The position numbers were made by a program, and so were the translations under genes. From contig JBCNVM010000008.1 in assembly GCA_039630085.1 (NCBI GenBank), positions 7,179-71,178 on the forward strand: a stretch of DNA of 64,000 nt. The letters are read 5' to 3'. The DNA is from Candidatus Caldarchaeales archaeon (lineage in GTDB: Archaea > Thermoproteota > Nitrososphaeria_A > Caldarchaeales > Calditenuaceae). The notes beneath the pieces were generated by a model. That model was not told where the DNA came from. It ran no database searches and saw only the letters and a program-made list of their open reading frames with translations. Below, piece after piece: positions 1-53,368 of this stretch (positions are counted from its first letter, which is position 1; the number at the start of each line of letters is the position of its first letter).

Positions 1-307
1 GGCTCAGGACGAACCTCGCCTCGCTCGCGGTGTAGGTCACGGTGGCCAGCGTCTTCCCGGACCTGCTCCTGACGGTCCTCAGGGTCGGCCTCTCCTCCGC
101 CTCGGGCGCCGGCTGCTGCTCCGCGGCCCTCCTCGCTACCAGCATGTCGGCCCTCTTGAAGCTCGACTTCGCGAGGGCCTCGTCGACGAACCTCACCATC
201 GCCTTCAGCCTCTCGAGCTCCGACTGGAGCTCCGATATCCTCCTCTCGAGCCAGGCCTTCAGCTCGGCGAGCTCCTGGGCCCTCTCTCCCTCCTCTGAGT
301 AATCCAT
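1..307 (-). CDS. Hypothetical coiled-coil protein, 5' part only (runs off the window); last visible gene of the Ub-E2-E1 operon
   Basis: My own reverse-complement translation from the ATG at 305-307 gives MDYSEEGERAQELAELKAWLERRISELQSELERLKAMVRFVDEALAKSS..., with no stop in 102 codons. It starts 7 nt after the E1 stop, and GAGG lies in that spacer. The track's + strand ORF 42-302 is its shadow. Confidence 0.5.
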   Translation of the reverse strand, partial: MDYSEEGERAQELAELKAWLERRISELQSELERLKAMVRFVDEALAKSSFKRADMLVARRAAEQQPAPEAEERPTLRTVRSRSGKTLATVTYTASEARFVLS

Positions 308-314
308 AGGCCTC

Positions 315-1526
315 TCACTCGGGCCCGTTGCCCGCCGGGGGATATGGGTCTTTCGACCCGACCCGCTCGGCGGCGATCAGCTTGAGCGGGAGCGGCGAGT
401 AGCGCCTGGAGGTCACGACGTAGACGATGGCCGAGCCCCTCTCGCCGAGGACCTCCGAGAGCCGCTCCTCGTCCTGGAGGACCCTGGTCCCGAAGAGGAC
501 CTCGACGTCGGGGAAGCCGAACCTCTCCGCTATCTCCTCGCGGAGCCTCGAGACGGTGCCGTCGGGCTCGACCTCCATCACCGGCGGCGACTCGCTATCG
601 CCGCAGACGATGCAGCCCTCGACCCTGCGGAGCGGGACGACCGTGAACCTGCAGGACCTTGCGTCGTATACCAAAAGGCCCCTCCTCGGCCTCCCGACCT
701 TCCCTCTGTGGACCAGCTTGAGGACCTCGGTCGAAGCTACCCCCGCGACGACCGCTGAGACGCTCTGGAGGGCTGGGAGCTTCGGCCTGAGCCTCTCCCT
801 CAGCGAGACGATCACCGAACCGACGACGGGATCTGCGAAGTCGGCGGGGTTGGAGTACTTGATGTCGTAGACGGTCTTGACGTTGTGGGCGAAGAGCCTC
901 CGGGCTGTCTCGAGGGGGAGCCGTATCCCCTGATCCTCCAGCTCCCTCATCAGCTCCTCCGGGGTCCTCTTCCTGAGCGTGCACTCGGCGAGCCTCTCCT
1001 CCCGGGGTATCAGGGTCATGCTGTGGCACTCGAGGCACGCGGTCCTGAACGGCAGGACGACCTGGACGTTGCCGACCATCCCCTCCATAGCGCCGTCGAC
1101 CAGGGGCTTCGAGAGCGAGACCGCGACCGAGTTCAGCCACCTCCTTATCCCCCAGCTGTCGAGGCAGGAGCAGATGACGTCGGCCTCCGCGAAGACCTCC
1201 TCCCTCAGGTCCCTGAGGTCCGAGTGGTAGGCTTCGACCCGCACGTGCGGGTTCAGGGCCCTGAGCCTCTCCGCGGCCACGATCGCCTTAGGCTTTCCGA
1301 CGTCCTCCTCGAGGAAGAGCATCTGCCTGTTGAGGTTGCTCAGCTCCACGACGTCCCTGTCCACCAGTATCAGCCTCCCGACGCCTGCTAGGGCCAGGTT
1401 CTTCGCGACCTCGCAGCCTAGGGCCCCGACGCCGGCGATGAGGACCGTCGAGCGCATCACGAGCTCCTGGTCCCAGCCCTCGATCCTCATCTGCCTGTCG
1501 TAGCGCTCCAGGTCCGGAGTTCGCAT
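315..1526 (-). CDS. Ubiquitin-activating E1-like enzyme (ThiF/MoeB/UBA family) with a C-terminal ubiquitin-fold-like extension
   Basis: LIAGVGALGCEVAKNLALAGVGRLILVDRDVVELSNLNRQ is the Rossmann/adenylation motif of E1/MoeB enzymes. There are two CxxC pairs (CLEC, CIVC). The roughly 90-aa C-terminal tail looks beta-grasp-like. Only a 3-nt gap separates it from the E2 gene, and an AGGGG SD-like element lies upstream. Confidence 0.85.
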   Translation of the reverse strand: MRTPDLERYDRQMRIEGWDQELVMRSTVLIAGVGALGCEVAKNLALAGVGRLILVDRDVVELSNLNRQMLFLEEDVGKPKAIVAAERLRALNPHVRVEAYHSDLRDLREEVFAEADVICSCLDSWGIRRWLNSVAVSLSKPLVDGAMEGMVGNVQVVLPFRTACLECHSMTLIPREERLAECTLRKRTPEELMRELEDQGIRLPLETARRLFAHNVKTVYDIKYSNPADFADPVVGSVIVSLRERLRPKLPALQSVSAVVAGVASTEVLKLVHRGKVGRPRRGLLVYDARSCRFTVVPLRRVEGCIVCGDSESPPVMEVEPDGTVSRLREEIAERFGFPDVEVLFGTRVLQDEERLSEVLGERGSAIVYVVTSRRYSPLPLKLIAAERVGSKDPYPPAGNGPE

Positions 1527-1529
1527 GAA

Positions 1530-2021
1530 TCAGCCCCTGAGGACCTTCTCGGGGGTCGCGTAGAGCTCGATGTACTGCCGGACCCTCGCCTCGAACGTGT
1601 GGAAGGAGTTCTTCATCTCGTAGGCGGCCCAGGCGTTGAGGGGGTCGTCGGGGTTCGGGTTCGAGAGGAGGTTCTTCAGGGCCTCGATCACCGCGACCAG
1701 GTGTATGTTCGGGTACCAGTCCTTCGTGAGGATCGACTCGCAGATCCTCGCGGGGACCTCGTCGGTGAAGTTCGGGTGCCAGATCCTGGTGAGCCAGAGG
1801 ACCCTAGGGGGAGTGTAGGGGAAGGTCCTGTCGAGGAAGACCTCGACGAGGAACATCCCGCCCTCGTAGAGCCCGGTCCCGACTATCACGCCCCTGTAGT
1901 GGGTGAGGTCCCCCCTCACCGTGTCGAAGGTCGGCTCGTAGTTCCTCACCAGCTGGTACTCCTGGGCCAGCCTCCTGTACCAGAGGTGCTCGGGGAGGAG
2001 GCCGACCTCTTCGCTGTACAA
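1530..2021 (-). CDS. Ubiquitin-conjugating enzyme E2 (UBC fold)
   Basis: YEGGMFLVEVFLDRTFPYTPPRVLWLTRIWHPNF...ARICESIL...LLSNPNPDDPLN contains the canonical UBC core, the HPN motif and a catalytic Cys about 8 residues downstream. It has a TTG start 4 nt after the Ub stop, with GAGAGG just upstream. Confidence 0.85.
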   Translation of the reverse strand: MYSEEVGLLPEHLWYRRLAQEYQLVRNYEPTFDTVRGDLTHYRGVIVGTGLYEGGMFLVEVFLDRTFPYTPPRVLWLTRIWHPNFTDEVPARICESILTKDWYPNIHLVAVIEALKNLLSNPNPDDPLNAWAAYEMKNSFHTFEARVRQYIELYATPEKVLRG

Positions 2022-2025
2022 CCTC

Positions 2026-2262
2026 TCACCCGCCGACCGTCCTCGTGACCAGGACTAGCTTGTCCCCCTCCGCGACGCCCGCCGACTCCAGCGTCTCCGT
2101 GTCCCCGAGCGCCCTGCCCTTGTAGGTGAGCTTCGCGTCGTCGGGCCTGAGCTTCTTCATCGCGCAGACCCTGAGCTTTATCGCGCCCACGGTCGTGTTC
2201 GGCGGGACGTCGATCTCGAGGGGTGGTCCTCCTCCCACGGCGGGGACTATCCTCACCCTCAT
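2026..2262 (-). CDS. Ubiquitin-like protein, 78 aa, ending in GG directly before the stop codon
   Basis: MRVRIVPAVGGGPPLEIDVPPNTTVGAIKLRVCAMKKLRPDDAKLTYKGRALGDTETLESAGVAEGDKLVLVTRTVGG aligns by eye with eukaryotic ubiquitin (LEV.P.DT...VK..I, L.F.GK.L.D..TL, L.LV.R..GG). I chose the start at Met58 of track ORF 2026-2433, because the upstream extension runs into the tRNA gene and a TATA-like box lies 26-33 nt upstream of this ATG. Confidence 0.75.
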   Translation of the reverse strand: MRVRIVPAVGGGPPLEIDVPPNTTVGAIKLRVCAMKKLRPDDAKLTYKGRALGDTETLESAGVAEGDKLVLVTRTVGG

Positions 2263-2287: not shown

Positions 2288-2295
2288 CTAAATAA
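2288..2295 (-). promoter_or_regulatory. TATA-like box (TTATTTAG on the minus strand) for the Ub-E2-E1 operon
   Basis: An A/T octamer in an otherwise GC-rich spacer, 26-33 nt upstream of the ATG at 2262. The same spacing recurs at many first genes in this window. Confidence 0.4.
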
Positions 2296-2389: not shown

Positions 2390-2476
2390 CGCCGGGGGCG
2401 GGATTCGAACCCGCGCGGCTCACGGGGAGCCACAGGCTCTCAAGGCCTGCCCCTTGGTCCACTCGGGCACCCCGGC
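2390..2476 (-). tRNA. tRNA-Ser (anticodon UGA), class II with a long variable arm; no intron, CCA not encoded
   Basis: Minus-strand read: GCCGGGG-TG-CCCGAGTGGACCAAGGGG-CAGGC-CTTGAGA-GCCTG-TGGCTCCCCGTGAGCCGC-GCGGG-TTCGAAT-CCCGC-CCCCGGC-G. There is a 7-bp acceptor stem, a GGTTCGAATCC T-arm and the anticodon loop CU-UGA-GA. A TATA-like CTAAAAT lies 23-30 nt upstream (2499-2506). Confidence 0.9.
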
Positions 2477-2610: not shown

Positions 2611-3090
2611 ATGGAGGAGCTCGCGAGGATGAGGGTGAGGCTGACGTCGGACCTGCCAAGGCTTGAGGTCGCCGGCAGGGTCTACGAGGGCCTGAAGACG
2701 GGAGCGGTGATCGAGGTCCCGGTCTGGGCCGCGGACGCGATGGTCAAGGCGAGGGTCGCCGAGGTGGTCGACGAGCTGGGCGTCCAGCAGCTCCGCCAGA
2801 TCTCGCTCAGGGAGACGAGGGGACAGGTCGAGCCGGTCCCGCTCAGGGAGGACTTCTACGGGAGGGCGAGGCACGCGCTGAGGAGGGCGAGGGAGTTCTC
2901 GGGAGAGGAGGCGAGGAGGTTCGAGGAGGCCCTGAGGGACGTGATCGCCGCGAGGGTCCACAAGGTCTGCGTCGCGGCCACGAAGGGCGCCGAGCCTCCG
3001 TGGCTGGGGAACCTGACGCCGGAGGAGAGGAGGCTCTACCTGAGGGCGAGGGAGCTGGTAGAGGAGTTCGTCTCGGAGGCGCTGAGGTAG
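2611..3090 (+). CDS. gins23: GINS subunit, Gins23-like (B-domain followed by A-domain)
   Basis: 159 aa from the ATG at 2611; the track ORF begins at 2323 but overlaps the tRNA. It has VPVWAADAMVKARVAEVV (GINS B-domain-like) followed by a helical Arg-rich domain. Its TAG stop directly abuts the MCM TTG start, matching the gins23-mcm operon known in Sulfolobus. Confidence 0.5.
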   Translation: MEELARMRVRLTSDLPRLEVAGRVYEGLKTGAVIEVPVWAADAMVKARVAEVVDELGVQQLRQISLRETRGQVEPVPLREDFYGRARHALRRAREFSGEEARRFEEALRDVIAARVHKVCVAATKGAEPPWLGNLTPEERRLYLRARELVEEFVSEALR

Positions 3091-5097
3091 TTGGGGTCGG
3101 ACGGGCGGCCGGTGGAGGAGAGGCTCGTCGAGCTCTTCAAGCGGGAGAAGTACAGGGACCTGATAGCGAGGGCCGTCCTCTCCAACAGGCGGTCGGTCCC
3201 GGTGGACTTCCCGGACCTCGCGGTCTTCGACCCGGAGTTCGCCCCGGCCCTCCTCGAGCACCCCGACAGGTACCTCCCGGTGCTGGACGCGGCGCTCACC
3301 GAGCAGGTCAGGATCGAGTTCCCCGAGCAGTTCGGGAGGAGGTTCAGGGCGAGGGTCAGGGGGCTCCCGGAGGCGCTCAGCGTCAGGGCGATCAGGTCCG
3401 CGCACCTCGGGAAGCTCGTCATGGTCGACGGGATCGTCGTGAGGGCGACGACGGTCAGACCGGTCGTGGTCAGGGCCTTCTACAGGTGCAGGAACTGCGG
3501 GAGGGAGTACGAGGTCGAGGGCTGGAGGGGGGTCCCGAGGTGTTCGAACCCCCGGTGCGCCGAGAGGAAACCCGCGATGGAGAGGCTCGAAGAGAAGACC
3601 GAGTACACCGACTCCCAGCTGCTCGGCCTCCAGGAGAAGCCCGAGGAGCTCCCGCCGGGCCAGCTTCCCAGGACGATCGAGGTCTCGCTGACCGAGGACA
3701 TCGTCGACACGGCCGCGCCGGGCGACAGGGTGACGGTCTGCGGCGTGGTTAGGGCGGTCGCGGAGAGCAGGGGAGGCGCGCCCACAGGGCAGCTGAAGAT
3801 GAGGATCGAGGCGGTCTCGCTGGAGACGAGGGGCAAGGAGCTCGAGTCGCTCGCGATCTCCCCCGAGGACGAGAAGGAGTTCAGGAGGATGGCCTCCGAA
3901 CCCGGGATCTACGAGAGGCTGGTGGCCTCGATAGCGCCCTCGATCTACGGACACGAGGCGATCAAGGAGGCGATACTGCTGGCGCTGGTCGGCGCGAGGC
4001 AGAAGGTCTTCCCCGACGGCGTGAGGGTGAGGGGGGACGTCCACCTGCTCCTCGTGGGAGACCCGGGGACCGCGAAGTCGACGCTGCTGCTCCACGCAGC
4101 GCAGATCGCCCCGAGGGGCGTGTACACGACCGGAAGGGGCTCGACGGCCGCCGGCCTCACGGCAGCGGTGATCAGGGAGCAGGGAGGGGGGATGGTCCTG
4201 GAGGCGGGCGCGACGGTCCTCGCGGACATGGGGGTCTGCGTCGTCGACGAGATCGACAAGATGAGGCCGGAGGACAGGGTCGCGATGCACGAGGTGATGG
4301 CCAACCAGACCGTCAGCATCGCGAAGGGAGGAATAGTCGCGACCCTCAACGCCAGGTGCAGCATACTCGCCGCGGCGAACCCTGAGCTCGGGAGGTACGA
4401 CCCCTACAGGCCATTCAACGAGAACGTGAACCTGCCAGTGACGCTGCTGAGCAGGTTCGACCTGATCTTCGTCCTGAGGGACGAGCCGAACCCCGAGGTC
4501 GACAGGAGGATCTCGTCCCACATGATCTCCCTCCACCTGAACAGGGCCCCTGCAGAGGCCGCCCCGGTCCCTCCGGAGACTCTGAAGAGGTACATCGCGT
4601 TCGCGAAGAAGTTCAACCCGGTCCTGACGGAGGAGGCCGCGAAGGAGATCCAGCAGTTCTACCTCCAGATGAGGTCGGTCTACGAGAGGACATCGACGGT
4701 CGCGATAACCGCGAGGCAGCTCGAGTCGCTGGTGAGGCTGGCCGAGGCCAGGGCGAGGGCCCTCCTGAGGGAGGCTGTGACGAAGGAGGACGCGCAGGTC
4801 GCGATACGGCTGATGAAGAGGAGCCTCTCGGAGGTGGGGATAGACGTGGAGACCGGGAAGCCTGACATCGACGTGATCATGTCGGGGAAGCCGCTGAGCG
4901 TGAGGGAGAAGCTGACGCTGGTATTGGACGCGATCAAGAGGCTCCAGCAGCAGCACGGCTACGCCGACGACAACGCGCTCAGGCAGGAGCTGGCGGAGAA
5001 AGGGCTGAGCAAGTCCGAAATCGACAGGATACTGAGCAGGATGATCTCCGACGGCAGGATCTACTCTCCGAAGCCCGGGACCTACAGGGTAACCTGA
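3091..5097 (+). CDS. mcm: MCM replicative helicase
   Basis: Zn finger CRNCG...CSNPRC, Walker A GDPGTAKS, Walker B CVVDEIDKM, arginine finger SRFDLIF, and a C-terminal winged helix. 668 aa, no intein. Confidence 0.95.
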   Translation: MGSDGRPVEERLVELFKREKYRDLIARAVLSNRRSVPVDFPDLAVFDPEFAPALLEHPDRYLPVLDAALTEQVRIEFPEQFGRRFRARVRGLPEALSVRAIRSAHLGKLVMVDGIVVRATTVRPVVVRAFYRCRNCGREYEVEGWRGVPRCSNPRCAERKPAMERLEEKTEYTDSQLLGLQEKPEELPPGQLPRTIEVSLTEDIVDTAAPGDRVTVCGVVRAVAESRGGAPTGQLKMRIEAVSLETRGKELESLAISPEDEKEFRRMASEPGIYERLVASIAPSIYGHEAIKEAILLALVGARQKVFPDGVRVRGDVHLLLVGDPGTAKSTLLLHAAQIAPRGVYTTGRGSTAAGLTAAVIREQGGGMVLEAGATVLADMGVCVVDEIDKMRPEDRVAMHEVMANQTVSIAKGGIVATLNARCSILAAANPELGRYDPYRPFNENVNLPVTLLSRFDLIFVLRDEPNPEVDRRISSHMISLHLNRAPAEAAPVPPETLKRYIAFAKKFNPVLTEEAAKEIQQFYLQMRSVYERTSTVAITARQLESLVRLAEARARALLREAVTKEDAQVAIRLMKRSLSEVGIDVETGKPDIDVIMSGKPLSVREKLTLVLDAIKRLQQQHGYADDNALRQELAEKGLSKSEIDRILSRMISDGRIYSPKPGTYRVT

Positions 5098-5110
5098 CGG
5101 TGGACAGCGC

Positions 5111-7246
5111 TTGGAGGTCGAGGCCCTTCCAGTCTCCGAGGGGATGAAGAGGGCGCTGAGGTCGGAGGGCGTCGAGCGGCTCTACCCGCACCAGGTCAGC
5201 GCGATCGAGCGGGGGCTGATGGAGGGCAGGAGCATGGTCGTCTCCGCGCCCACCGCCTCCGGGAAGACGCTCCTCGCGGTCCTCGCGGCCTACAGGCACC
5301 TCTCGGAGGGGAGGAAGGTCCTCTACCTGACGCCCCTCAGGGCCCTGACGACCGAGAAGGTCACCGAGTTCGCGCGCCTCTTCGGCGAGGCGGGGATGAG
5401 GGTTAAGGTCAGGGCGGCCTCCGGCGACTACGACGACAGGGGCGACTGGCTCTCCGACAGCGACCTGGTCGTCGCGACCTACGAGAAGGCCGACAGCCTG
5501 GTCAGGCACGGGGCCTCTTGGCTCGGGAGGGTCAGGCTGATCGTGGTTGACGAGGTCCACATGATCGGCGACAGGGAGAGGGGGCCGACGCTGGAGATGA
5601 CGGTCGCGAAGCTCCTCGAGGTCCTCGGGGGGCCGCAGGTCCTCTGCCTCAGCGCGACGATCCGGAACGCCGAGGAGATAGCCCGGTGGCTCGACGCCGA
5701 GCTCGTCAGGTCCGACTTCAGGCCCGTCCCGCTGAAGGAGGGCGTCCTGGTCGAGAGCGAGAACATGGTCCTCTTCTCCGACGGCACCTCGAGGCGGCTC
5801 GAGGAGATGGGGGACGGACTGCTGGCCGCGGTGAGGGACGGGCTCCGGAACGACGGCCAAGTCCTCGTCTTCGCGATGACTAGGAGGAAGGCCGAGGCCT
5901 ATGCGAAGAGGATCGCCGGGTCCTTGGTCGAGCTTGGCGACGGAGAGGAGCTCAGCCGGTACGTCGCGAGGGCCCTCGAGGACCGGGACTCCCCCTCCAG
6001 CGAGCAGCTGGCCGAGCTCATCTCAAGGGGCGTCGCCTTCCACCACGCGGGCCTGAGCTTCCACCACAGGTCCCTGGTCGAGGAGGCCTTCAGGTCGAGG
6101 GCCCTGAAGGTGCTCTGCGCGACCACGACGTTGGCGGCCGGCGTGAACCTTCCGGCGAGGACCGTGGTGATTCCGGAGTACCGGAAGTACGCGGGGAGCA
6201 GGGGGTACGAGGAGCTGAGCGTGATGGAGTACAAGCAGCTCTGCGGGAGGGCCGGGAGGCCGAAGTACGACAGGGCGGGGTACGCGGTCCTGATCGCGAG
6301 GACGCCCAGGGCGGCCCGGGAGCTGATGAACGCGTACGTCCTCGGCGAGCCCGAGAAGGTCTGGTCGTTCCTGGCCAGCGAGAGGCACCTCAGGTCGCAC
6401 GTCCTCTCCCTGGTGGCTACCGAGATCGCGACCGACGAGCCCTCGCTCCACAGCATCCTCGGGAGGACCTTCTTCGCGCACCAGTACGGGCAGGGCGTCC
6501 TCCGGAACAAAGTAGGTCCGGTCCTCGAGTTCCTCGAGGAGAACGGCATGATAAGGAGGGGCAAGGGGATCGAAGCGACCCCGCTGGGCAGGAGGGTCTC
6601 GGAGCTCTACATCGACCCGATGACCGCTGTGAAGATGCTGGAGCTGACCTCCGGCGACTTCGTCCCCGAGGAGCTGGCCATGCTCGCGGTCGTCTCGATC
6701 GTCCCGGACATGCAGGACGTCCCGGTGCCCGGCGTCCCCAAGTCGGTCCTCTCGAGGGTCGCGGAGGAGAACCGACGAATCCTGCCCCGGCTCCCCGACC
6801 CCGACGACTCGCCCGACGAGTACGAGCTCTACCTCGAGGGCCTCGCGATCGCCCTGACGCTCGAGGAGTGGATCGGGGAGGTCAGGGAGAAGGAGATCTA
6901 CGAGAGGATGAGGATCGAGCCCGGAGACTTCGCGGTCCTCAGGGAGAGGGCCGAGTGGGTCGCGTACTCCGCGGGCCAGGTGCTGAGGGTCGTGGGGAGG
7001 AGGGGAATCGCCTTGAGGTTCGCGGAGCTGGCGGAGCGGATCAGGCACGGCGTCAGGCCCGACATACTGGAGCTCGTCTCGATCCCCGAGGTCGGAAGGG
7101 TGAGGGGGAGGGAGCTCTGGAGGAACGGCTTCAGGTCGCTCAGGGAGATCGCCGAGGCCCCGGTCGAGAGGCTCGCGAAGGTCCCGGGAATAGGCCAGAG
7201 GCTCGCGGAGAGGATCAAGGCCTACGCCGTCGCCGCTGCCCGGTGA
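5111..7246 (+). CDS. hel308: Hel308/Hjm Ski2-like DNA helicase
   Basis: LYPHQ, SAPTASGKT (motif I), VVDEVH (motif II), SAT, HHAGL, QLCGRAGR, and a C-terminal HhH-like domain. 711 aa. Confidence 0.9.
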   Translation: MEVEALPVSEGMKRALRSEGVERLYPHQVSAIERGLMEGRSMVVSAPTASGKTLLAVLAAYRHLSEGRKVLYLTPLRALTTEKVTEFARLFGEAGMRVKVRAASGDYDDRGDWLSDSDLVVATYEKADSLVRHGASWLGRVRLIVVDEVHMIGDRERGPTLEMTVAKLLEVLGGPQVLCLSATIRNAEEIARWLDAELVRSDFRPVPLKEGVLVESENMVLFSDGTSRRLEEMGDGLLAAVRDGLRNDGQVLVFAMTRRKAEAYAKRIAGSLVELGDGEELSRYVARALEDRDSPSSEQLAELISRGVAFHHAGLSFHHRSLVEEAFRSRALKVLCATTTLAAGVNLPARTVVIPEYRKYAGSRGYEELSVMEYKQLCGRAGRPKYDRAGYAVLIARTPRAARELMNAYVLGEPEKVWSFLASERHLRSHVLSLVATEIATDEPSLHSILGRTFFAHQYGQGVLRNKVGPVLEFLEENGMIRRGKGIEATPLGRRVSELYIDPMTAVKMLELTSGDFVPEELAMLAVVSIVPDMQDVPVPGVPKSVLSRVAEENRRILPRLPDPDDSPDEYELYLEGLAIALTLEEWIGEVREKEIYERMRIEPGDFAVLRERAEWVAYSAGQVLRVVGRRGIALRFAELAERIRHGVRPDILELVSIPEVGRVRGRELWRNGFRSLREIAEAPVERLAKVPGIGQRLAERIKAYAVAAAR

Positions 7247-8471: not shown

Positions 8472-10634
8472 ATGTGGATAGACCCGATGGTCCTCACGAC
8501 GGCCCTCGGAGCCCTCGGAGCGCTGACGGCGGTCGCGTTCGTGATGCTGGTCGAGAGGTACCAGAAGGGCCCCGAGTCCTTCGTCTCGGTCTGGGCCGCG
8601 ATCAGGGAGGGCTCGGCGGCTTACCTGAAGAGGCAGTACAAGACGATCTACGTCATCGCGGCCTTCATCTTCCTCCTGATCGTCGGGAGCTTCGGGGCCT
8701 TCCCCGCGATGGGAGGCCTCTGGTACGGCCTCTCGATCGGCGGCAGCTTCCTGCTCGGCGTGACCTTCTCCCTGATAGCCGCGAGCATCGCGATGGACTC
8801 CGCGACCAGGGCCAACGTCAGGACCGCCTACGCCGCCTCCAGGGACTCGGTCTCCTCGCTCAGGGTCGCGACGCTGGGGGGCGCGGCGCTGGGGCTCGCG
8901 GTCATCGCGATGAGCCTGCTGGGCCTCTCGATCCTCTACTGGGTCTTCAGGGACCCGGGCATCCTCGCGGGCTTCGGGTTCGGGGCGAGCCTCGCGGCCC
9001 TCTTCGCGCAGCTCGGCGGCGGGATCTACACGAAGAGCGCCGACATCGGCGCGGACCTCGTCGGCAAGGTCGAGGTCGGGATACCTGAGGACGACCCGAG
9101 GAACCCGGCGGTGATCGCTGACCAGGTGGGCGACAACGTCGGCGACGAGGCGGGGAGGGGAGCAGACCTCTTCGAGTCCGTGACCGCGGAGAACCTCGGA
9201 GGGATGATCATCGCGCTGATGGTCTCGATAGTCCTCTTCCAGAAGATCAACGAGAGCTACGTCGTGATGCCGCTCCTGGTTCGGGCCGTCGGGGTAGTCG
9301 CGACGCTGGCCGGAGTCGGGTGGGCCGTCTTCCAGAGGGGCTTCAGGGACGCGATCGAGCCCCTCAGGAACGGGCTGATCGTCACCTCTGTCGTCGCGGC
9401 GGCGCTGATGTACGTGACCTCCGCGACCGTATTCGGGCAGCACTTCCTCCCGCTCTACGTCTCGATGATCGTGGGGCTGATCGCCGGGATCCTCATCATG
9501 TTCTACAGCGAGATCTACACCAGCCTGAAGTCCAGGTACGTGGGCGCGATCGCCAGCAACAGCGAGTCCGGGCCCGCCCTCACGGTGGTCTCGGGCCTCG
9601 CGGTCGGGATGATATCCACGGCGCTCCCCGTGATAACGGTCGTGATCGCGATCATCGTCTCATACCTGCTCGGCGTCGAGTGGGCCAGGACGGCAGGCCT
9701 CCCTGACCTCTTCCTCGGGGGAGTCTTCGGGACCACGATGGCCACGATGGGGATGCTCTCGACCGCGGGTTTCGTCCTGACGATGGACGGGGTCGGGCCG
9801 ATCGTCGACAACGCGGGAGGGATAGCCGAGATGGCGAACGCCCCGAAGGAGATAAGGGACAGGCTAGAGCCGCTGGACGCGCTGGGCAACACGACGAAGG
9901 CCCTCACGAAGTCCTACGCGATGGGTTCGGCGGCCCTCGCGGCCCTCCTGCTCTTCCAGGCGTTCCTGCTCGAGGTCGGGAGGTACCTCGCGGGGATAAT
10001 CGAGCTCAGCCACCTGACGCCGGCCCAGTCCCGTAACCTCCTCGTCCAGATCGAGCAGCTCTCGAACCAGCTCCAGCTCAACTCCCCGACCGTCCTGATA
10101 GGCCTCTTCATCGGCGCGATGATCCCGTTCCTCTTCTCCGGGTACGCGGTCAACGCGGTCGCGACCGGGGCCTTCCAGATGGTCGAGGAGGTCAGGAGGC
10201 AGTTCAGGACCATTCCTGGTCTCCTCAACGGCGCCGCGAGGCCCGAGTACGGCAGGTGCGTCGACATCTCCACCAAGACCGCGCTCAAGCTGATGGTCAC
10301 CCCGACGCTCGTCGTGACGCTGGCTCCGATTCTGGTCGGCGTGCTGCTCGGGTGGAGGGCCGTGGGAGCCCTGGTGATCGGCGCGACGGTCTCCGCGATA
10401 CCGCTCGCGATCGTCGGGTTCTACGGGGGCGCAGCGATGGACAACGCGAAGAAGTACCTCGAGATCGCGGGGAGGAAGGGTTCGGACGCCCACAAGGCCG
10501 CGGTCGTCGGCGACACGGTCGGGGACCCGATGAAGGACACGTATGCACCATCGCTCCACATCCTCATCAAGCTGCTGAACACGCTGTCCTTGGTGTTCAT
10601 TCCGCTGTTCATCTACGCTATAATGACGCTCTGA
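8472..10634 (+). CDS. hppA: Membrane-bound H+-translocating pyrophosphatase, K+-independent type
   Basis: 720 aa and polytopic. Contains GGGIYTKSADIGADLVGK, DNVGDNVGD-like ADQVGDNVGDEAG, GNTTKA (a Lys where K+-dependent enzymes have Ala) and VGDTVGDPMKDT. Confidence 0.95.
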   Translation: MWIDPMVLTTALGALGALTAVAFVMLVERYQKGPESFVSVWAAIREGSAAYLKRQYKTIYVIAAFIFLLIVGSFGAFPAMGGLWYGLSIGGSFLLGVTFSLIAASIAMDSATRANVRTAYAASRDSVSSLRVATLGGAALGLAVIAMSLLGLSILYWVFRDPGILAGFGFGASLAALFAQLGGGIYTKSADIGADLVGKVEVGIPEDDPRNPAVIADQVGDNVGDEAGRGADLFESVTAENLGGMIIALMVSIVLFQKINESYVVMPLLVRAVGVVATLAGVGWAVFQRGFRDAIEPLRNGLIVTSVVAAALMYVTSATVFGQHFLPLYVSMIVGLIAGILIMFYSEIYTSLKSRYVGAIASNSESGPALTVVSGLAVGMISTALPVITVVIAIIVSYLLGVEWARTAGLPDLFLGGVFGTTMATMGMLSTAGFVLTMDGVGPIVDNAGGIAEMANAPKEIRDRLEPLDALGNTTKALTKSYAMGSAALAALLLFQAFLLEVGRYLAGIIELSHLTPAQSRNLLVQIEQLSNQLQLNSPTVLIGLFIGAMIPFLFSGYAVNAVATGAFQMVEEVRRQFRTIPGLLNGAARPEYGRCVDISTKTALKLMVTPTLVVTLAPILVGVLLGWRAVGALVIGATVSAIPLAIVGFYGGAAMDNAKKYLEIAGRKGSDAHKAAVVGDTVGDPMKDTYAPSLHILIKLLNTLSLVFIPLFIYAIMTL

Positions 10635-17966: not shown

Positions 17967-18629
17967 CTAAACCGGTCGGGCGGGCGCCTCCGGGGCCTTT
18001 CTCCTCTCCAAGACCCTCTTGATGTGCTTGAGCTTCACGAAGTAGTCCCTGTCGGACTCCTCGAGGGACATCGCGATCTCCTTTATCGCGCTCCTGTACC
18101 TCGGCATGATGACGTACTCGAGGGCGTTCAGGAGCCTCTGGGTCCTCTTCAGCTCCTCCGCGATCCTGAAGATCGCGTTCTCGATGGCCGCGGCCCTGCA
18201 GACGTCGCCTATGACCGACCTCAGCTTCCTGGAGGCCTCGTCGAGGTGCACAGAGGTCTCGAGGAACCCGTAGGGCAGCGGGAAGGAGGCCTGCTCCAGC
18301 TCGACCGTAGGGACCTGGATCCCCATCATCGTGTAGGACCCGACCTTGACCTTCACAGTCTCGGGGAGCGTGGAGGTGATCGTCTGGATCGCGCCCGGCC
18401 CGGACTTCAGATAAGCGGCGATCAGCTCCTGGTAGGCCTCGGAGAGCTTCGCGGAGAGCGCCTCCCTCAGCTCCTGGGCCTCGTCGATGAGCTCGTTGAT
18501 CCTCCTCACCAGCACGTCCCTCTTGTCCTCGAGGATCCTGTAGACCCTCTCAGCGGTCCTGAGGGACCTCCGCAGCCTCAGCAGCTCGAGCCTCGTCCTC
18601 AGGTAGCCTCCTCCGAAGGCGACCGACAT
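17967..18629 (-). CDS. atpD: A-type (V-type) ATP synthase subunit D
   Basis: 220 aa, coiled-coil. RLELLRLRRSLRTAERVYRILEDKRDVLV at the N-terminus and RRINALEYVIMP-like LLNALEYVIMPRY near the C-terminus are typical of NtpD/AtpD. It has its own TATA-like box about 25 nt upstream. Confidence 0.85.
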   Translation of the reverse strand: MSVAFGGGYLRTRLELLRLRRSLRTAERVYRILEDKRDVLVRRINELIDEAQELREALSAKLSEAYQELIAAYLKSGPGAIQTITSTLPETVKVKVGSYTMMGIQVPTVELEQASFPLPYGFLETSVHLDEASRKLRSVIGDVCRAAAIENAIFRIAEELKRTQRLLNALEYVIMPRYRSAIKEIAMSLEESDRDYFVKLKHIKRVLERRKAPEAPARPV

Positions 18630-18674: not shown

Positions 18675-19841
18675 TCAGGCCTTCCTCAGCAGGACCGCGC
18701 TCTCCCTCGTCTCGCCGATCCTCTTCACCCTCTCGTAGGTCGCGACCCTCTTCGCCAGCGCCATCACCCGCTCCACCTCGAACCCGAGCCTCCTCGCGAT
18801 CCTCGCGAGGACTAGGTCCACCTCGACGACGAGCCCCGGGTAGACGCCGCCGGAGACGACGTAGGCCGCCCTCCCTCCCCTCCTCAGCACCCTCAGGGCC
18901 TCGGAGAGGGACTGCTCGAGGTCGGCGAAGTACGCGACCGCCGATCCGGGGAGGCCCTCGGCCTCTGGAGGGACCCTGCCGGGCCTGGGAGAGAGCCCGA
19001 TGTAGGACCTGATCAGGTCCGGCCTCCGGCCCCCGAGGAACAGCTCCATCTCGATCTCGTAGACTCTGGTGTACTCGATCTTGTTCAGGTAGGGCGGCGA
19101 GGTGATGACCGCGTCCACCGACCCCTCTCCGAGGAAATTCAGCTCCCTCGCGTCCCCGAGGTAGATCTCCGCGGGCCCCGACTTCAGGGCGATCCTCTCC
19201 ACGTCTTCGATCATCTTCCTGACCTTGGACCTGAAGGCCTTCGGGAGATCCGGGACCGGCCGCCTCTCGATTTTAATGACCGAACCTTCCTTGACCGCGT
19301 AGGAGCACCTCATCGCCGCGGACATGAGGGCCAGCGTGAAGAACGCCTTGACGTCGCGGTCTCCGATGCCCGCGACCTCCTCCCTCAGCGAGAGGAGCTG
19401 GCGGAGGGTCTCGGACCTGAAGGCCCTCCTCACGAGCGGGCTGAGCCCCGAGAGGTCGTGCGTCCTGAACCTGACCGAGGCCAGACGCTCCGCCTCCGCC
19501 CTCAGCCTCTCCGGGTCGTACCTCCTGGTCTTCGCGAAGCTGATCAGGACCATGAGCGGCGAGGCGTCCACGCCGACGGCCCCCAGCCCCAGCTCCATGC
19601 AGGTGAGCGGCGTCGTCCCCGACCCCACGAACGGGTCCAGCACCACCTCGCCCTCGCGCAGGCCCATCCTCTTGATCAGCAGCTCGACGAGGTCCCTCGA
19701 GAATCCCTCCTTGAAGTGGAACCACCTGTGGACCGGATATGCGAGGTTCGGCTCGAAGGTCGGGAGCCTCCAGAGGTCGTAGCGGAGCTCGAAGGCGAAC
19801 TCGTCGGCCCCCTGGCCCTGGACGCCGTCGGAGAGCGTCAC
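18675..19841 (-). CDS. SAM-dependent N6-adenine/N4-cytosine DNA methyltransferase, alpha-class motif order (orphan)
   Basis: VLDPFVGSGTT (motif I) comes about 170 aa before ITSPPYLN (motif IV). I chose a GTG start at 19839-19841 that overlaps the upstream TGA (GTGA). The track ORF extends to 20117 as Arg/Pro-rich sequence overlapping the previous gene. Confidence 0.7.
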   Translation of the reverse strand: MTLSDGVQGQGADEFAFELRYDLWRLPTFEPNLAYPVHRWFHFKEGFSRDLVELLIKRMGLREGEVVLDPFVGSGTTPLTCMELGLGAVGVDASPLMVLISFAKTRRYDPERLRAEAERLASVRFRTHDLSGLSPLVRRAFRSETLRQLLSLREEVAGIGDRDVKAFFTLALMSAAMRCSYAVKEGSVIKIERRPVPDLPKAFRSKVRKMIEDVERIALKSGPAEIYLGDARELNFLGEGSVDAVITSPPYLNKIEYTRVYEIEMELFLGGRRPDLIRSYIGLSPRPGRVPPEAEGLPGSAVAYFADLEQSLSEALRVLRRGGRAAYVVSGGVYPGLVVEVDLVLARIARRLGFEVERVMALAKRVATYERVKRIGETRESAVLLRKA

Positions 19842-20698
19842 GCCTGCTTCTGGGACGTGAGCTTCTTGTACAGGTAGAGGATCGCGTACTCCCTCGGGAC
19901 CTGCTCGTCCTGGACGACCCTCGCGATCGCGTGCTGGAGCTTGGACTCGTCGAGGGGCTTCGACTCCTTGAGCCTCTTCAGATACTCGGGAGCGAGGTCG
20001 GCGTAGGTCGTCAGCTTGTAGATCAGGTTCGGGAGGTTCCTGAGGAGCTCCAGCTTCTGGAGGAGTTCTCCCCTCGCGGACATGATCCGTGCTATCTCGT
20101 CCCTGATCCTGCTGCACTCGGCCTCGAGCTCGGCTATCGAGAGTTGGCTCTCAGACCTGCCCCCGGCCCTCGCCTCGTAGAGATACTCGAGGTCGACGGA
20201 CTTGTCGAAGAGCACCTGCTCGAGCTCCGAGATCACCGAGTCCATCTCGTTGACGGCCTGCTGGATCACCGCCTCGACATCGCCGGCGCTCGCGAGGACC
20301 CTGCTCCTCTCCGCCTCGAGCTCGCTCAGCTTCCTCTTCACCACGGCCAGGTTAGGCGTCGGGTACTTCTCGACGAAGACCCGCTGGATCGACTTGTCGA
20401 GCGTCTTGATCTCCTCCATCCTCGCAAGGAGCTCCTCGAACCTCGCCTTCGCCCTCCTCGCGCCCTCCTCGGCCCTCCTGACCAGCTCCTCGGTCTCGGG
20501 GCTCACAGTCGCCTGACGGGGCTGCTCGGGGACCGGCTGGACCTGCGGGAGCTCCTCGACGGGCTGCCTCTCCTGAACACCAGCCGGAGGGGCCTGGGCG
20601 ACGGGAGGCTGGGCAAATGGGTCCTGCTGCTGGGGCTGGTCGAGGGGACGCCTCCTGATGATGATCCTGCGGCGCTGGTCGAACGTCACTGCCTCCAC
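19838..20698 (-). CDS. Hypothetical protein: P/Q-rich N-terminus followed by a long coiled-coil
   Basis: 286 aa. QPQQQDPFAQPPVAQAPPAGVQERQPVEELPQVQPVPEQPRQ is followed by heptad-like helical sequence. It overlaps the JAMM gene by 13 nt and the MTase gene by 4 nt. I recognise no family. Confidence 0.6.
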   Translation of the reverse strand: MEAVTFDQRRRIIIRRRPLDQPQQQDPFAQPPVAQAPPAGVQERQPVEELPQVQPVPEQPRQATVSPETEELVRRAEEGARRAKARFEELLARMEEIKTLDKSIQRVFVEKYPTPNLAVVKRKLSELEAERSRVLASAGDVEAVIQQAVNEMDSVISELEQVLFDKSVDLEYLYEARAGGRSESQLSIAELEAECSRIRDEIARIMSARGELLQKLELLRNLPNLIYKLTTYADLAPEYLKRLKESKPLDESKLQHAIARVVQDEQVPREYAILYLYKKLTSQKQA

Positions 20699-21324
20699 CA
20701 GGCTATCCTGCTGATGAGCTCGTTTAAGTAATAGAGCAGCCCCCTGCCCTCGCTTCCCCCCGGATCAACGAAGGAAGGCGCGGAGTCGTCGGGGTACGGC
20801 GTCGCGGGCAACTCCCGGCGGACGAGGAAAGGCGGCACCCTCACCTCGCCCTCGACGAGCGTCGGCACCTCGACGACCAGGCCGCTGTCCTCCATAACCC
20901 TGAAGAACTTGAAGCACGAAGGCGAGAGGCCGCCGGACTTCGCGAACTCCCAGGGGTCCACGACCAGGGCCACGGCCTTCGGGTAGAGCCTCTGGTAGTT
21001 CAGCTGGGTCGCGTAGTCGACCGCGGAGAGGAAGACACCCATTCCGGGGTGGGTGTGGTACCATCCGACGACGTAGAGGTTCCCCCTCTGTCCCTCCAGC
21101 AGTTCGGAGAGCGCGGCCATCAGCGAGTCGTCGAGGGAGACGTGACCCGCGGAGCCCCTCTGCCTGCCGGTCACCGCGTCAGTCACCAAGAGCTCCTCCT
21201 TCCTCTCCCTCCCGATCAGGAGCCCCGCGACCTCCCTCCTGGGGTGGCTGAGCCCGTGCCTCATCACCTTCGCGAGGGCCTCGCCCGAGACCCTGATCAC
21301 GACCTTTCCGGGCTTGCTGGCCAC
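20686..21324 (-). CDS. JAMM/MPN+ metalloprotease (Rpn11/CSN5-like putative deubiquitinase)
   Basis: REVAGLLIG (conserved Glu) plus GWYHTHPGMGVFLSAVD give a complete E...HxHx7Sx2D JAMM motif. 212 aa with a roughly 80-aa C-terminal extension. Confidence 0.85.
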   Translation of the reverse strand: MASKPGKVVIRVSGEALAKVMRHGLSHPRREVAGLLIGRERKEELLVTDAVTGRQRGSAGHVSLDDSLMAALSELLEGQRGNLYVVGWYHTHPGMGVFLSAVDYATQLNYQRLYPKAVALVVDPWEFAKSGGLSPSCFKFFRVMEDSGLVVEVPTLVEGEVRVPPFLVRRELPATPYPDDSAPSFVDPGGSEGRGLLYYLNELISRIAWWRQ

Positions 21325-31982: not shown

Positions 31983-32579
31983 TCAGAGGTTCCTCGTCCC
32001 CTCTGCCCCGGAGACCTTAAGGCCCTCCGGGACGTCCGGGAAAGCGGTCTTCATCCTCTGCGCGGCGATCTCCGACGCCTCTTGGAGAATCTTCTGGGCC
32101 TCCGGGTCCGCGATCGAGACGCTCACCACCGTCCCCGAGACGCTGCCAGCCTCCGCTATCAGTCCCTCGAGCACCTCGTCGACGTACCTCAGGTTCTGGG
32201 CGACCTCCGGGACTATGCCTGCGAGGTCGGACTGGACCTGCTTGACGATCGCGGTCGCCGGGCCGAGGACGTGCATGACGTCCCCGAACTCCTTCACCGT
32301 CTCGAGCCTCAGGATCACCTTCTCGAGCGAGAGCTGGCTCCTCACGACGACCCTCGACATCTTCCTCAGCTGCGCGATCTCGTTCGCGTAGATCGTGGCC
32401 CTGCTGACGTCGCCCTCCTGCTGCGCCCTCACGCACTGCTCGAAGAGCTCCTTGGCCCTCGCGGAGAGCCTCGAGACCGTGCGGTTCAGCTTGTCCGACT
32501 GGATCCTCAGCGCCATCAGCACCTCGGTGAACCTGGCGTCGCTCGTCGTTATCGACTCCTTCACGAAGGGTATCCTCAT
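31983..32579 (-). CDS. cdvB: ESCRT-III (Snf7/CdvB family) protein
   Basis: 198 aa and all-helical, with a basic N-terminal half and an acidic C-terminal half. The layout LRKMSRVVVRSQLSLEKVILRLETVKEFGDVM...IVPEV...EVLEGL is typical of CdvB paralogs. A TATA-like CTTTTAG lies about 30 nt upstream. Confidence 0.75.
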   Translation of the reverse strand: MRIPFVKESITTSDARFTEVLMALRIQSDKLNRTVSRLSARAKELFEQCVRAQQEGDVSRATIYANEIAQLRKMSRVVVRSQLSLEKVILRLETVKEFGDVMHVLGPATAIVKQVQSDLAGIVPEVAQNLRYVDEVLEGLIAEAGSVSGTVVSVSIADPEAQKILQEASEIAAQRMKTAFPDVPEGLKVSGAEGTRNL

Positions 32580-41636: not shown

Positions 41637-42881
41637 GTGGACTTCGGCTCGGTCGCGGTCTCGAGGGTCGAGGCTGGGCTCGAGAGGAGTTACTGCGAGG
41701 TCTGCGGGAACGTCGCGAGGTTCTGCAGGCTGACGAGGTGCCCGTTCTACAGACACGTCGTCGAAGAACTGAGGGGCCTTATCTCGTCGTCGAGGGGCTC
41801 GGTCTTCGGTCCGACGCCCCCGGCGATGCTGGTGGGCGAGAGGGGCTACCCGAGGGTCGTCGCGGGGCCCGCGGTCAGCGTCGCTCCGGAGCTGCTCGTC
41901 GGACCGAACCCCAAGGAGTGGCTCAACAAGTCACTAGAGGAGCTCCTCGCCTCGAGGCTCTCTCTGGTGATGGGGAGGAAGAGGGTCGACGCCAGGAGGC
42001 CGCTCTCCGAGAGGACGGTCCGGGAGCTGTTCGAGGCGGAGCTCTCCGTCAGGCCCGTCGACGTCGAGCTCTCCTACGAGGGCCCCGTCGTCCACAGGCC
42101 CGGTTTCTTCGCGAGGTCGATGCCCCACGGCCCCTCCGTGAGGCTGAAGTCGGCCCGCGTCGCCGGGAACCCGAGGATCCCGAGGAAGGTCGAGGAGGTG
42201 ATCGAGGGGGAGATGAGGGCCGAGCAGGCGGTGATCGAGCTCGCGGAGAGCGGGCTGGACCAGCAGTACGTCACGAGGGCCCTCTCGATCGGCGCGCTCG
42301 GCTCCCCCGTGAGGCGGAGGCTCGTACCGACCGAGTGGAGCATAACTGCGGTCGACGAGATCCTCTCGAGGCCGCTGCTGAGGAGGGTGAGGAGATACCC
42401 GCTCCTTAACGAGGTGAGGCTCCACAGCTTCTCGGCCCTCCACAACTCGGCCCACGTCCTGCTCCTGCCGACCTCCTGGGCCTTCGAGCTCCTCGAGGGT
42501 TGGCCGAAGTTCCCGGAGGACTCGCCCTACGCGGACCACGAGCTCCACTTCGGGAGGACCGACTACGCCGAGAACACCGGAGGGGCCTACTACGCGGTCA
42601 GGCTCGCCGTCCTGAGGCACCTCGCGTCCGAGAGGAGGCAGGCGGGCGCTGTCGTCCTCTTCGAGGTCGGGAGGGGCTGGATACCGCTCGGCGTCTGGAG
42701 GTTCAGGGAGGTGACCGCGGCCGCGCTCGGGAGTCCGCCGGAGAGGTTCCAGAGCCTCGAGGAGGCCCTGGAGCGGATCAGGCCGAGGCTCGAGCTCCCG
42801 CTGGAGAGGTACCTCGCCAAGAGCGCGGTCATCAGGTTGCTGGTCGCGCAGAGGACCCTCACGGGCTCGAGGGCGCTCTGA
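41637..42881 (+). CDS. nreA: Archaeal Nre-family protein (NreA-like DNA repair factor, DUF650/DUF651)
   Basis: An N-terminal Cys cluster CEVCGN...CRLTRCPFY followed by FGPTPPAMLVGERGYPRVVAGP. About 410 aa, as I recall for Nre proteins. Assigned from memory of the family, not from a search. Confidence 0.6.
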   Translation: MDFGSVAVSRVEAGLERSYCEVCGNVARFCRLTRCPFYRHVVEELRGLISSSRGSVFGPTPPAMLVGERGYPRVVAGPAVSVAPELLVGPNPKEWLNKSLEELLASRLSLVMGRKRVDARRPLSERTVRELFEAELSVRPVDVELSYEGPVVHRPGFFARSMPHGPSVRLKSARVAGNPRIPRKVEEVIEGEMRAEQAVIELAESGLDQQYVTRALSIGALGSPVRRRLVPTEWSITAVDEILSRPLLRRVRRYPLLNEVRLHSFSALHNSAHVLLLPTSWAFELLEGWPKFPEDSPYADHELHFGRTDYAENTGGAYYAVRLAVLRHLASERRQAGAVVLFEVGRGWIPLGVWRFREVTAAALGSPPERFQSLEEALERIRPRLELPLERYLAKSAVIRLLVAQRTLTGSRAL

Positions 42882-52213: not shown

Positions 52214-53365
52214 TCAGAAGACCGGCCTGATCGGAGACTTCAACGGCTTTATCGACTTCCCGAAGAACCTGACGAAGGAACCCATGTCCTCGAGGGTGCT
52301 GGTCCCGGCGAGGACATCGACGTAGGGCATCGCGGTGAGCATCCCAACGGTCATCGGCCTGAAGTTCGGCTTGTCGGCGTGGGGGTTCAGCCACACGATC
52401 TTCCCCACCCTCACCCTCAGGCCCTCCATGCTCTCCCTCAGCACCTCCGGCTCCCCCGTGTCCCAGCCGTCGCTGACTATGATGGCGACCCAGGACCTGT
52501 CGACGAGCGTGCCGTACCGCTCGAGGAACGTCCTGAGGCAGCTGCCGATCCTAGTCCCGCTCCCCCAGAGGTCCACCCTCTCGGAGAGCCTCCTCCTGAT
52601 CTCCTCGAGGTTCGTCGTCTCCAGGAGCTCCGTGACCCGCATCAGCCTCGTGCTGAAGACGAAGACCTCGACCCTCCTCGCGAGGCGCCTGATGAGGTAC
52701 ATCGCCCTGACGATCCACTCGTTGTAGGTGTCCATGGACCCGCTGATGTCGAAGAACGCCACGACCCGCAGCCTCGAGAGTACCTTGCTCGACCTCTTCA
52801 GCTCCATCAGCTCCGCCGCGGTCCCGAGCGCAGACCTCATCGTCCTCGGGAAGTCCAGCTCCCCCTTCGCCGACCTCCTGTACCTCCTGCCCTCCAGGAC
52901 CGCGAGCCTCCTCCTCATCCTCCTTATCACGCGCTTCCCGGCCTTCACCCTCATCGGGTCGATGGGCTTCAGGACGCGCTTGTGGAGTGTCTCCATCGGG
53001 CTGTACATGAAGACGTCCACCGACTTGTCCTGCTGCTGGCCCCCGCTCTGGTCCTGAACCGCCCTGACCGCCGAAAGCCTCTGGGAGCTGCTCTCGCTCC
53101 CTTCGCCGGCCCTCTCGCCCTCCTCGCCCACCTCCTCTCCGGAGGTGGCCTGTGAGACCGCCTGCTGGAAGACCTCCTCCAAGAGGTGGAACTTCGAGGG
53201 GTCCTTGATCATCGTGACCCTGATGGCCGTCTTGAGCTCGGGGAGCCCGTAGGACCTGACGTGGTAGAGGGCCTCGCACGCGTCTAGGGACTCGGATACC
53301 CCCACCTTCAGCTGCCTCTCCCTGAGGAGGTTGGCGAGCTCCACGACGAACCTGTACGCGTCCAA
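52214..53365 (-). CDS. VWA-domain protein (CoxE-like), partner of the MoxR ATPase
   Basis: MIDAS motif VAFFDISGSMD. 383 aa. It starts 3 nt after the MoxR stop. Confidence 0.8.
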   Translation of the reverse strand: MDAYRFVVELANLLRERQLKVGVSESLDACEALYHVRSYGLPELKTAIRVTMIKDPSKFHLLEEVFQQAVSQATSGEEVGEEGERAGEGSESSSQRLSAVRAVQDQSGGQQQDKSVDVFMYSPMETLHKRVLKPIDPMRVKAGKRVIRRMRRRLAVLEGRRYRRSAKGELDFPRTMRSALGTAAELMELKRSSKVLSRLRVVAFFDISGSMDTYNEWIVRAMYLIRRLARRVEVFVFSTRLMRVTELLETTNLEEIRRRLSERVDLWGSGTRIGSCLRTFLERYGTLVDRSWVAIIVSDGWDTGEPEVLRESMEGLRVRVGKIVWLNPHADKPNFRPMTVGMLTAMPYVDVLAGTSTLEDMGSFVRFFGKSIKPLKSPIRPVF

Positions 53366-53368
53366 CCC

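Follow-up and report, generated by a model that had tools for sequence, protein, structure and literature searches.

A eukaryote-like ubiquitin operon in a Calditenuaceae archaeon with no RING ligase gene at its locus

What is to be made of an archaeal locus that encodes ubiquitin (Ub), E2 and E1 side by side and no RING ligase with them? Archaeal Ub-E1-E2-RING operons serve as models for the ancestor of eukaryotic ubiquitylation, and the kind of system is well known: the operon of Caldiarchaeum subterraneum, with its Rpn11 (CsRpn11), was described in 2011 (Nunoura et al. 2011, PMC3082918) and studied further in 2017–2018 (Hennell James 2017, PMC5654768; Fuchs 2018, PMC6043591), when its Ub, E1, E2, small RING-finger protein (srfp, the E3) and Rpn11 were reconstituted and solved (PMC5654768, PMC6043591). 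The locus that raises the question lies at one end of a 64,000-nucleotide stretch of a Candidatus Caldarchaeales archaeon (assembly GCA_039630085.1, contig JBCNVM010000008.1, positions 7,179 to 71,178 of the forward strand), referred to here as the window. We consider it likely that this is a functional, Caldarchaeales-type and eukaryote-like Ub conjugation operon of a Calditenuaceae archaeon, at a locus without a RING ligase gene. It is mainly the lack of such a gene beside Ub-E2-E1 that is unusual. Two things are new: in 17 species, the window's included, the locus is without the two-RING block found behind E1 in 43 other Caldarchaeales species, and the window contains an Rpn11-like protease coupled to a conserved coiled-coil partner gene.

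The identities of the genes, their motifs and folds and the conservation of their order could be observed directly. The small protein at the head of the operon gave a Pfam ubiquitin match of 47.4 bits (cut-off 25.4) and no match to a ThiS or MoaD family in Pfam at E <= 1. Its nearest solved structure is Ub of C. subterraneum (CsUb; 6fj7, E 7e-35, aligned over the full length), and eukaryotic ubiquitin aligns with its residues 12–78. The C-terminal Gly77-Gly78 stands directly before the stop codon, and therefore no precursor cleavage is needed. The next gene encodes an E2 (Pfam UQ_con 92.9 bits, cut-off 27) that is 63% identical to the E2 of C. subterraneum and matches E2s in the PDB at E values of about 1e-20. 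Its HPN motif (residues 82–84) and its sole Cys, Cys94, are in register with the HPN motif and catalytic Cys of Plasmodium UBC13. An AlphaFold2 model of this E2, made on a 17-sequence alignment (predicted local distance difference test score, pLDDT, 91.8), was compared with UbcH5A using Foldseek and gave template modelling (TM) scores of 0.82/0.88 and a root-mean-square deviation of 1.8 Å.

The E1 has one ThiF/UBA adenylation domain (Pfam ThiF 204.7 bits, cut-off 28.1; GVGALG at residues 32–37) and two zinc-type CxxC pairs, CLEC at 164–167 and CIVC at 305–308. In the PDB it is matched best by the active adenylation domains of UBA1 (E 9e-42) and UBA3 from eukaryotes; matches to ThiF or MoeB structures are weaker, at about 1e-33. 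E1 Cys182 is aligned to the Cys of PICTLKN in human UBA1, which we take to be the catalytic Cys632, and is a candidate catalytic Cys. Towards the C-terminus, residues 317–372 gave a Pfam ubiquitin match under the threshold (21.4 bits). Profile-profile alignment of the same end of the protein with the cognate Ub family (hhalign) gave a probability of 97.6% and an E value of 4e-12 over 60 columns, and we therefore regard the ubiquitin-fold tail of E1 (about 312–372) as real.

A first-pass annotation, made by reading the letters of the window, had proposed a ubiquitin ending in GG at the stop codon, an E2 with a UBC core, HPN motif and catalytic Cys, and a single-chain ThiF/UBA-type E1 with two CxxC pairs and a ubiquitin-fold tail, and had likened the operon to those of C. 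subterraneum. The profile matches, the E2 alignment and model and the hhalign result bear out these assignments, and the nearest solved structures, CsUb and CsRpn11, bear out the likeness. It had also named findings that would speak against it, namely placement of the small protein in the MoaD/ThiS families, an E2 outside the UBC fold, or a misaligned HPN motif or Cys; Pfam searches and the E2 model revealed none of these.

The E1 adenylation domain is generically similar to ThiF, MoeB, UbaA and Cap2 models, so that one may ask whether the locus is instead a SAMP-type or sulfur-carrier system (MoaD/ThiS with MoeB/UbaA) or a bacterial defence operon (Bil, or CBASS with a Cap2-like enzyme). We hold this to be extremely improbable. 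The small protein belongs with ubiquitin and not with ThiS or MoaD, and a separate canonical UBC E2 is present. The E1 falls under every curated NCBIfam cut-off (UbaA 114.8 against 450, ThiF 142.7 against 275, and MoeB also), is nearer to UBA1/UBA3 and carries a ubiquitin-fold C-terminal domain. PADLOC has no match for Ub, E2 or the product of the fourth gene, and its Cap2 models match the adenylation segment of E1 only. The neighbours of the operon are housekeeping genes (exosome, GINS, MCM and Hel308).

We surveyed 80 species-level loci (numbered with the prefix L) anchored on E2, using BLAST queries and a profile made from eight archaeal srfp RINGs, and distinguished three locus architectures. 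Type A (43 species, from Caldarchaeum, Terraquivivens, Wolframiiraptor, Geocrenenecus, Pelearchaeum and others) has, in most species, a JAB gene divergent from Ub-E2-E1; downstream of E1 come a small RING, a protein of ~103 aa (u103), a convergent coiled-coil protein of ~279 aa (u279) and a RING protein of ~230 aa. The RING profile places both the small and the large RING within 4 kb of E1 in the 43 species, examples of the block being L011 8697–10136 and L015 8770–10983, and the layout fits the published operon, which lies beside a second E3 and Rpn11 (PMC6043591). The N-terminal segments of the ~230-aa RING protein appear hydrophobic, and the small RING of L015 had been overlooked by the gene caller. 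In type B (10 species) JAB and a gene for a coiled-coil protein are placed divergently to Ub(GG-stop)-E2-E1. Type C, which comprises the window and six species of Calditenuaceae, has the order Ub(GG-stop)-E2-E1-fourth gene, with JAB not adjacent. Two further loci may represent additional variants: L090 (JANXDH010000004.1) has E2 and E1 without a detectable Ub upstream, and in L140 E1 and Ub are on the strand opposite E2.

With the same profile no RING was found within ±8 kb in the 17 loci of types B and C, and u103 and u279 are likewise absent within that distance. In a six-frame translation of the 64-kb window the profile had no match at E <= 0.01; a canonical RING regular expression, a pattern that would also miss the srfp spacing, found nothing in the six frames either. 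The statement of the first-pass annotation that the operon itself includes no RING gene is thus correct. In all 17 species-level genomes of the RING-less group the Ub(GG-stop)-E2-E1 core is kept with its catalytic motifs. In the literature searched we found no description of the RING-less architecture; the only papers there that name Calditenuis together with ubiquitin do no more than refer back to the finding of 2011. A GG-terminated Ub was considered as a marker of RING loss and rejected, as many RING-bearing type A loci also have Ub ending at GG.

Residue 105 of the E2, which is aligned to UBE2D2 Ala96 of the RING-binding S-P-A loop, is Asn in 17/17 RING-less loci. In the 43 RING-bearing loci it is S/T/G/P (with one other), and in 11 Heimdallarchaeota loci Ala. 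Changing the corresponding Ser of the C. subterraneum E2 to Gln impaired srfp-dependent ubiquitylation (PMC5654768). Asn105 fits a loss or change of RING docking.

The E3 may nonetheless be encoded elsewhere, the srfp/RING module having been relocated in the genome and the cascade working as in C. subterraneum. We regard this as quite possible while leaning somewhat away from it. In C. subterraneum srfp is required for substrate modification in vitro (PMC5654768), the E2 of the window retains two elements of RING docking, the F-P-Y/F motif in loop 4 and the Pro in loop 7, and relocation does occur, as the Rpn11 gene has moved 18.4 kb from the operon in the genome of the window. On the other hand no RING is found in the 62 kb of the window that flank the operon on one side, nor within ±8 kb in the 17 species, the entire four-gene RING block is gone together, and position 105 of the E2 is now a larger polar residue in every one of the 17 loci. 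A more far-reaching proposal is that at least 17 species (Calditenuaceae and allies) run Ub-E1-E2 without any RING, the Asn105 E2 acting directly or via a non-RING partner, with the Calditenuaceae cascade tied to DNA replication or repair via the fourth gene, a recruit to the operon from a family coupled to ligase elsewhere; this we think unlikely.

The fourth gene runs off the edge of the window. Extension of the contig to the left, as the first-pass annotation had suggested, was achieved with a Logan contig (L001) identical to the window at 2479/2480 positions, which yielded the full 186-aa sequence. The gene has the same orientation as E1 and begins 7 nt after it; on L001 the next genes are those of the exosome, Rrp42, Rrp41 and Rrp4, in convergent orientation. 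The protein has zero Cys, and therefore no zinc-binding RING ligands, and it belongs to no Pfam, NCBIfam or PADLOC family. An AlphaFold2 model made on a 91%-identical homologue (pLDDT 81) has a long N-terminal helix (3–58), a disordered linker and a confident C-terminal domain of order beta-beta-beta-alpha-beta-beta-alpha. Foldseek returned nothing significant for it in the PDB (best E 0.056, TM 0.22–0.28), with no RING or U-box among the 50 best matches listed, and a profile search against PDB sequences gave coiled-coil noise only. A resemblance to type III secretion chaperones in the order of secondary structure elements scored too weakly to claim. By BLAST the fourth gene is unrelated to the u103/u105 proteins that come after srfp in other species.

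The family to which it belongs is widespread. An exhaustive hidden Markov model search retrieved 377 cluster representatives with E <= 0.001, 256 of them with E <= 1e-10; among the 150 best matches listed most are of 170–220 aa and aligned nearly over their full length. A genome scan, for which a 10-sequence subset was used since the 42-sequence alignment was too diverse for locus search, found the family in Caldarchaeales, Bathyarchaeia, Hecatellales and Nitrosopumilaceae. It adjoins Ub-E2-E1 in Calditenuaceae only, and within ±5 kb of the copies outside Calditenuaceae there is no gene for Ub, E2, E1, JAB or the exosome. The copies of C. subterraneum and Terraquivivens lie on contigs other than that of the Ub operon. 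We also considered whether the fourth gene is linked to its exosome neighbours and rejected this, as exosome genes are absent near the homologues elsewhere. In 19 of the 21 other loci that hold both genes, the homologue begins −4 to +50 nt downstream of the stop codon of a gene for an ATP-dependent DNA ligase, usually with a convergent UPF0047 gene downstream. The ligase-coupled loci are mostly from Caldarchaeales (L030–L056, for example L031 at about 3200–5560 and L054 at about 3250–5552). This arrangement suggests that the family is an uncharacterised ligase-associated factor, present also in ammonia-oxidising archaea.

The first-pass annotation had described the product of the fourth gene as a coiled-coil protein of unrecognised family that could be a substrate, an adaptor or an E3 substitute. 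That the gene is a dedicated part of the cascade in one of these roles, replacing the RING, appears improbable to us. It does sit just after E1, in the position that srfp takes in other Caldarchaeales, and in seven Calditenuaceae species it lies −1 to 51 nt from E1, including a TGATG overlap. However, the family also has members in Nitrosopumilaceae and Bathyarchaeia with neither Ub nor E2 nor E1 in the vicinity, and in RING-bearing Caldarchaeales on contigs other than that of the Ub operon. Moreover, the 10 type B species have neither a RING nor a fourth gene at the locus, and the protein has neither Cys nor a significant fold match, RING and U-box included. Given the breadth of the family and its coupling to ligase in 19 of 21 loci, a role as E3 substitute is therefore unlikely, and the gene is not an orphan tied to this cascade. 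The best reading is that a gene of a housekeeping family, as a rule coupled to ligase, was captured behind E1 in one family of archaea. That its product is a substrate, or links the cascade to replication/repair, is at most conceivable.

A protease that probably belongs to the system is encoded in the same window, 18.4 kb from the Ub operon. It is an Rpn11-like metalloprotease of the JAMM/MPN+ type (Table 1), and its best PDB match is CsRpn11 (6fju, E 1.7e-38). The first-pass annotation was right in placing no Rpn11-like gene in the operon, but had missed this one. Related JAB genes (49% identical in L007–L009) divergently adjoin Ub-E2-E1 in the 10 type B species and most of type A. CsRpn11 removes Ub from conjugates in vitro (PMC5654768, PMC6043591), and the protease of the window is probably the deubiquitinase of the system; since Ub needs no processing, its likely role would be the removal of Ub from conjugates. 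A second match to the JAMM regular expression, at 11027–11083, lies inside an unrelated open reading frame (ORF) and was discarded as a chance match.

The JAMM gene overlaps that of its coiled-coil partner, JNBR, whose family has a length of about 283–286 aa and corresponds to no Pfam, NCBIfam or PADLOC family. In L009, L013 and L015 the gene directly after JAB encodes a JNBR homologue found by BLAST (27–40% identical to the window protein). A family profile matched 34 related loci. Homologues lie directly downstream of JAB in the type B loci and in many type A loci. In the locus survey JNBR was detected directly beside JAB only. Possibly JNBR acts as a scaffold to which the C-terminal helices of the protease bind, in loose analogy to the eukaryotic Rpn8 or Abraxas partners. 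Directly downstream of JNBR in the window is an ORF that matches DNA methylase (N6_N4_Mtase) and further methyltransferase domains; in its longest form it overlaps JNBR by ~280 nt, and its true start is probably internal. A gene for V-type ATPase subunit D comes next.

The four ORFs at 1–2262 are tightly packed on the minus strand with spacers of 4, 3 and 7 nt (TGA-GAGG-TTG, TGA-TTC-ATG and TGA-GAGGCCT-ATG). They lie where the first-pass annotation had put them, with the spacers of 3–7 nt that it reported. The TATA-like element, a putative promoter, implies a leaderless or very short-leader transcript; it is kept at the same distance, as CCTTATTTAGCC or CTTTTATTAG, in seven related type C species. 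A longer, 135-aa reading of the Ub ORF runs into a tRNA-Ser(TGA) gene; since the homologues have 78 aa, the Ub start is taken to be the ATG at 2262. This tRNA gene, directly upstream of the Ub promoter, is the sole tRNA gene in the window. The TTG start of E2 (window 2019–2021), after GAGG or GCGC, is conserved across type C species, and the type B E2 examined (L009) has an ATG start. The G+C content of the window is ~66%, and the nearest loci are from metagenome-assembled genomes labelled Calditenuaceae or Calditenuis (Caldarchaeales, formerly Aigarchaeota).

Table 1. Positions of the ubiquitin-related genes and of other features in the window
Feature	Position	Strand	Description
Ub	2026..2262	-	78 aa, ...TRTVGG then TGA
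E2	1530..2021	-	163 aa, TTG start 4 nt past Ub stop
E1	315..1526	-	403 aa
Fourth gene, first 101 codons	1..305	-	starts at 305, continues beyond window; full protein 186 aa
TATA-like box	2289..2295	-	TTATTTA, ~27–33 nt upstream of Ub ATG, read from sequence
Rpn11-like JAMM/MPN+ metalloprotease	20686..21324	-	212 aa, motifs EVAGLL and HTHPGMGVFLSAVD, Pfam JAB 67.8 bits
JNBR, coiled-coil partner of JAMM protease	19838..20698	-	286 aa, overlaps JAMM stop by ~13 nt
DNA methylase ORF	18675..20117	-	N6_N4_Mtase
V-type ATPase subunit D	17967..18629		
tRNA-Ser(TGA)	2390..2476	-	
Replication/repair cluster	2626..7246	+	GINS subunit, MCM, Hel308-like helicase
MCM	3091..5097	+	
Hel308-like helicase	5111..7246	+	
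Membrane H+-pyrophosphatase	8472..10634	+	
Snf7/ESCRT-III-like protein	31983..32579	-	Pfam Snf7 33.9 bits
Nre protein	41637..42881	+	Nre_N + Nre_C
AAA (MoxR-like) ATPase, then VWA CoxE-like gene	52214..54394	-	

How might the cascade work? One promoter, with its TATA-like box ~30 nt upstream, would drive Ub-E2-E1 and, in Calditenuaceae, the fourth gene. Ub would be made in a ready form ending in Gly-Gly, free of any precursor cleavage. E1 would adenylate Gly78 of Ub and then hold Ub on Cys182 as a thioester, its C-terminal ubiquitin-fold domain recruiting E2, whose Cys94 would accept Ub with help from HPN 82–84. Transfer of Ub to substrate lysines would proceed without an operon-side ligase, either by E2 directly or by a ligase encoded elsewhere. 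The Rpn11-like JAMM protease, probably with its co-translated coiled-coil partner, would strip Ub from the conjugates.

Several points weigh against this picture of a functional operon at a RING-less locus. Every enzymatic step in it is drawn by homology from the reconstituted C. subterraneum proteins. The absence of RINGs covers the window and ±8 kb in its relatives rather than whole genomes; a RING scan of the genome collection, made with a two-sequence alignment and narrow patterns, recovered 7 loci as against the 43 RING-bearing species, and is uninformative on absence. The 17 RING-less loci are those with an E2 closest to that of the window and, by E2 similarity, look like one clade; if they are one, the Asn105 correlation would amount to a single evolutionary event. 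Finally, the spacer of −1 to 51 nt between E1 and the fourth gene makes co-transcription of the latter with the Ub operon likely in Calditenuaceae, and with so tight a coupling the fourth gene could be functionally tied to the cascade after all.

Divergent from the Ub operon is a replication/repair cluster encoding a GINS subunit (matching PDB 9moj_C, E 5e-6), MCM and a Hel308-like helicase; it lies beside the Ub operon in the nearest relatives of the window (L002–L004) only, and not in Calditenuis. A Snf7/ESCRT-III-like gene is flanked by Nudix and NAD kinase genes, with no other Cdv or ESCRT genes adjacent. A gene for an AAA (MoxR-like) ATPase and, behind it, a VWA CoxE-like gene form a common chaperone-like pair, and genes for an archaeal Nre protein and a membrane H+-pyrophosphatase are ordinary housekeeping genes.

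Should these genomes encode a RING at another place, the locus would be no more than another member of the known system. A natural clade with conserved Ub, E1, E2 and Rpn11 and no ligase gene at the locus would offer a test of whether a minimal eukaryote-type cascade can work without an E3, and of which E2 surface changes accompany its absence. The comparison has also brought up three conserved uncharacterised families: the archaeal Rpn11 partner, u103/u279 and the fourth-gene family.

Against known systems, the closest counterpart is that of C. subterraneum, with the same one-strand order Ub-E2-E1, a similar E2, and CsUb and CsRpn11 as best structure matches. Thr46 of Ub, which we take to be the equivalent of the eukaryotic Ile44 patch, is kept in the window. 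In the Caldiarchaeum literature the T46D change impaired the reaction. Unlike C. subterraneum, the window has no srfp RING after E1, no second, larger RING and no u103 or u279. Its Ub ends at GG, whereas theirs carries a 9-residue propeptide; its Rpn11 gene is distant, whereas theirs is juxtaposed; and a gene of a family that is elsewhere ligase-coupled follows E1. In loop 7 of the E2 the window has Asn105, unlike its RING-bearing relatives with S/T/G/P. Homologues of Ub, E1, E2, E3 and deubiquitinase have been reported from six further Aigarchaeota bins (Hua et al., PMC6053391). Of the five sequence-testable features of the Caldarchaeales system four are present: a Ub ending in GG, a UBC E2, an E1 of UBA type that carries a ubiquitin-fold domain, and a protease like Rpn11. 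The fifth, the srfp RING, is absent from the locus.

The type B loci (L080–L089; for example the 1.55-Mb contig JBEPYO010000001.1, and Archaeon HR02) share with the window the 78-aa Ub ending in GG, the E2 with Asn105, the E1, the lack of a RING within ±8 kb and the same pair of JAMM protease and coiled-coil partner. They differ in that the JAMM pair divergently adjoins Ub and no fourth gene follows E1. The Asgard (Heimdallarchaeota) clusters share a canonical UBC E2, 45–50% identical, and belong, according to PMC5654768, to the eukaryote-like type with Ub, E1, E2 and srfp; they are more distant in sequence, and Ub and E1 were not detected beside E2 with the BLAST queries used. The SAMP/UbaA, Bil and CBASS Cap2 systems have in common with the window a ThiF-type adenylating E1 and a JAB-type protease. 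They are without a separate HPN-bearing UBC E2, or have E1 and E2 fused, and their modifiers are ThiS/MoaD-like or of Bil type, whereas the Ub, the E2 and the ubiquitin-fold domain of the E1 in the window are of eukaryotic type.

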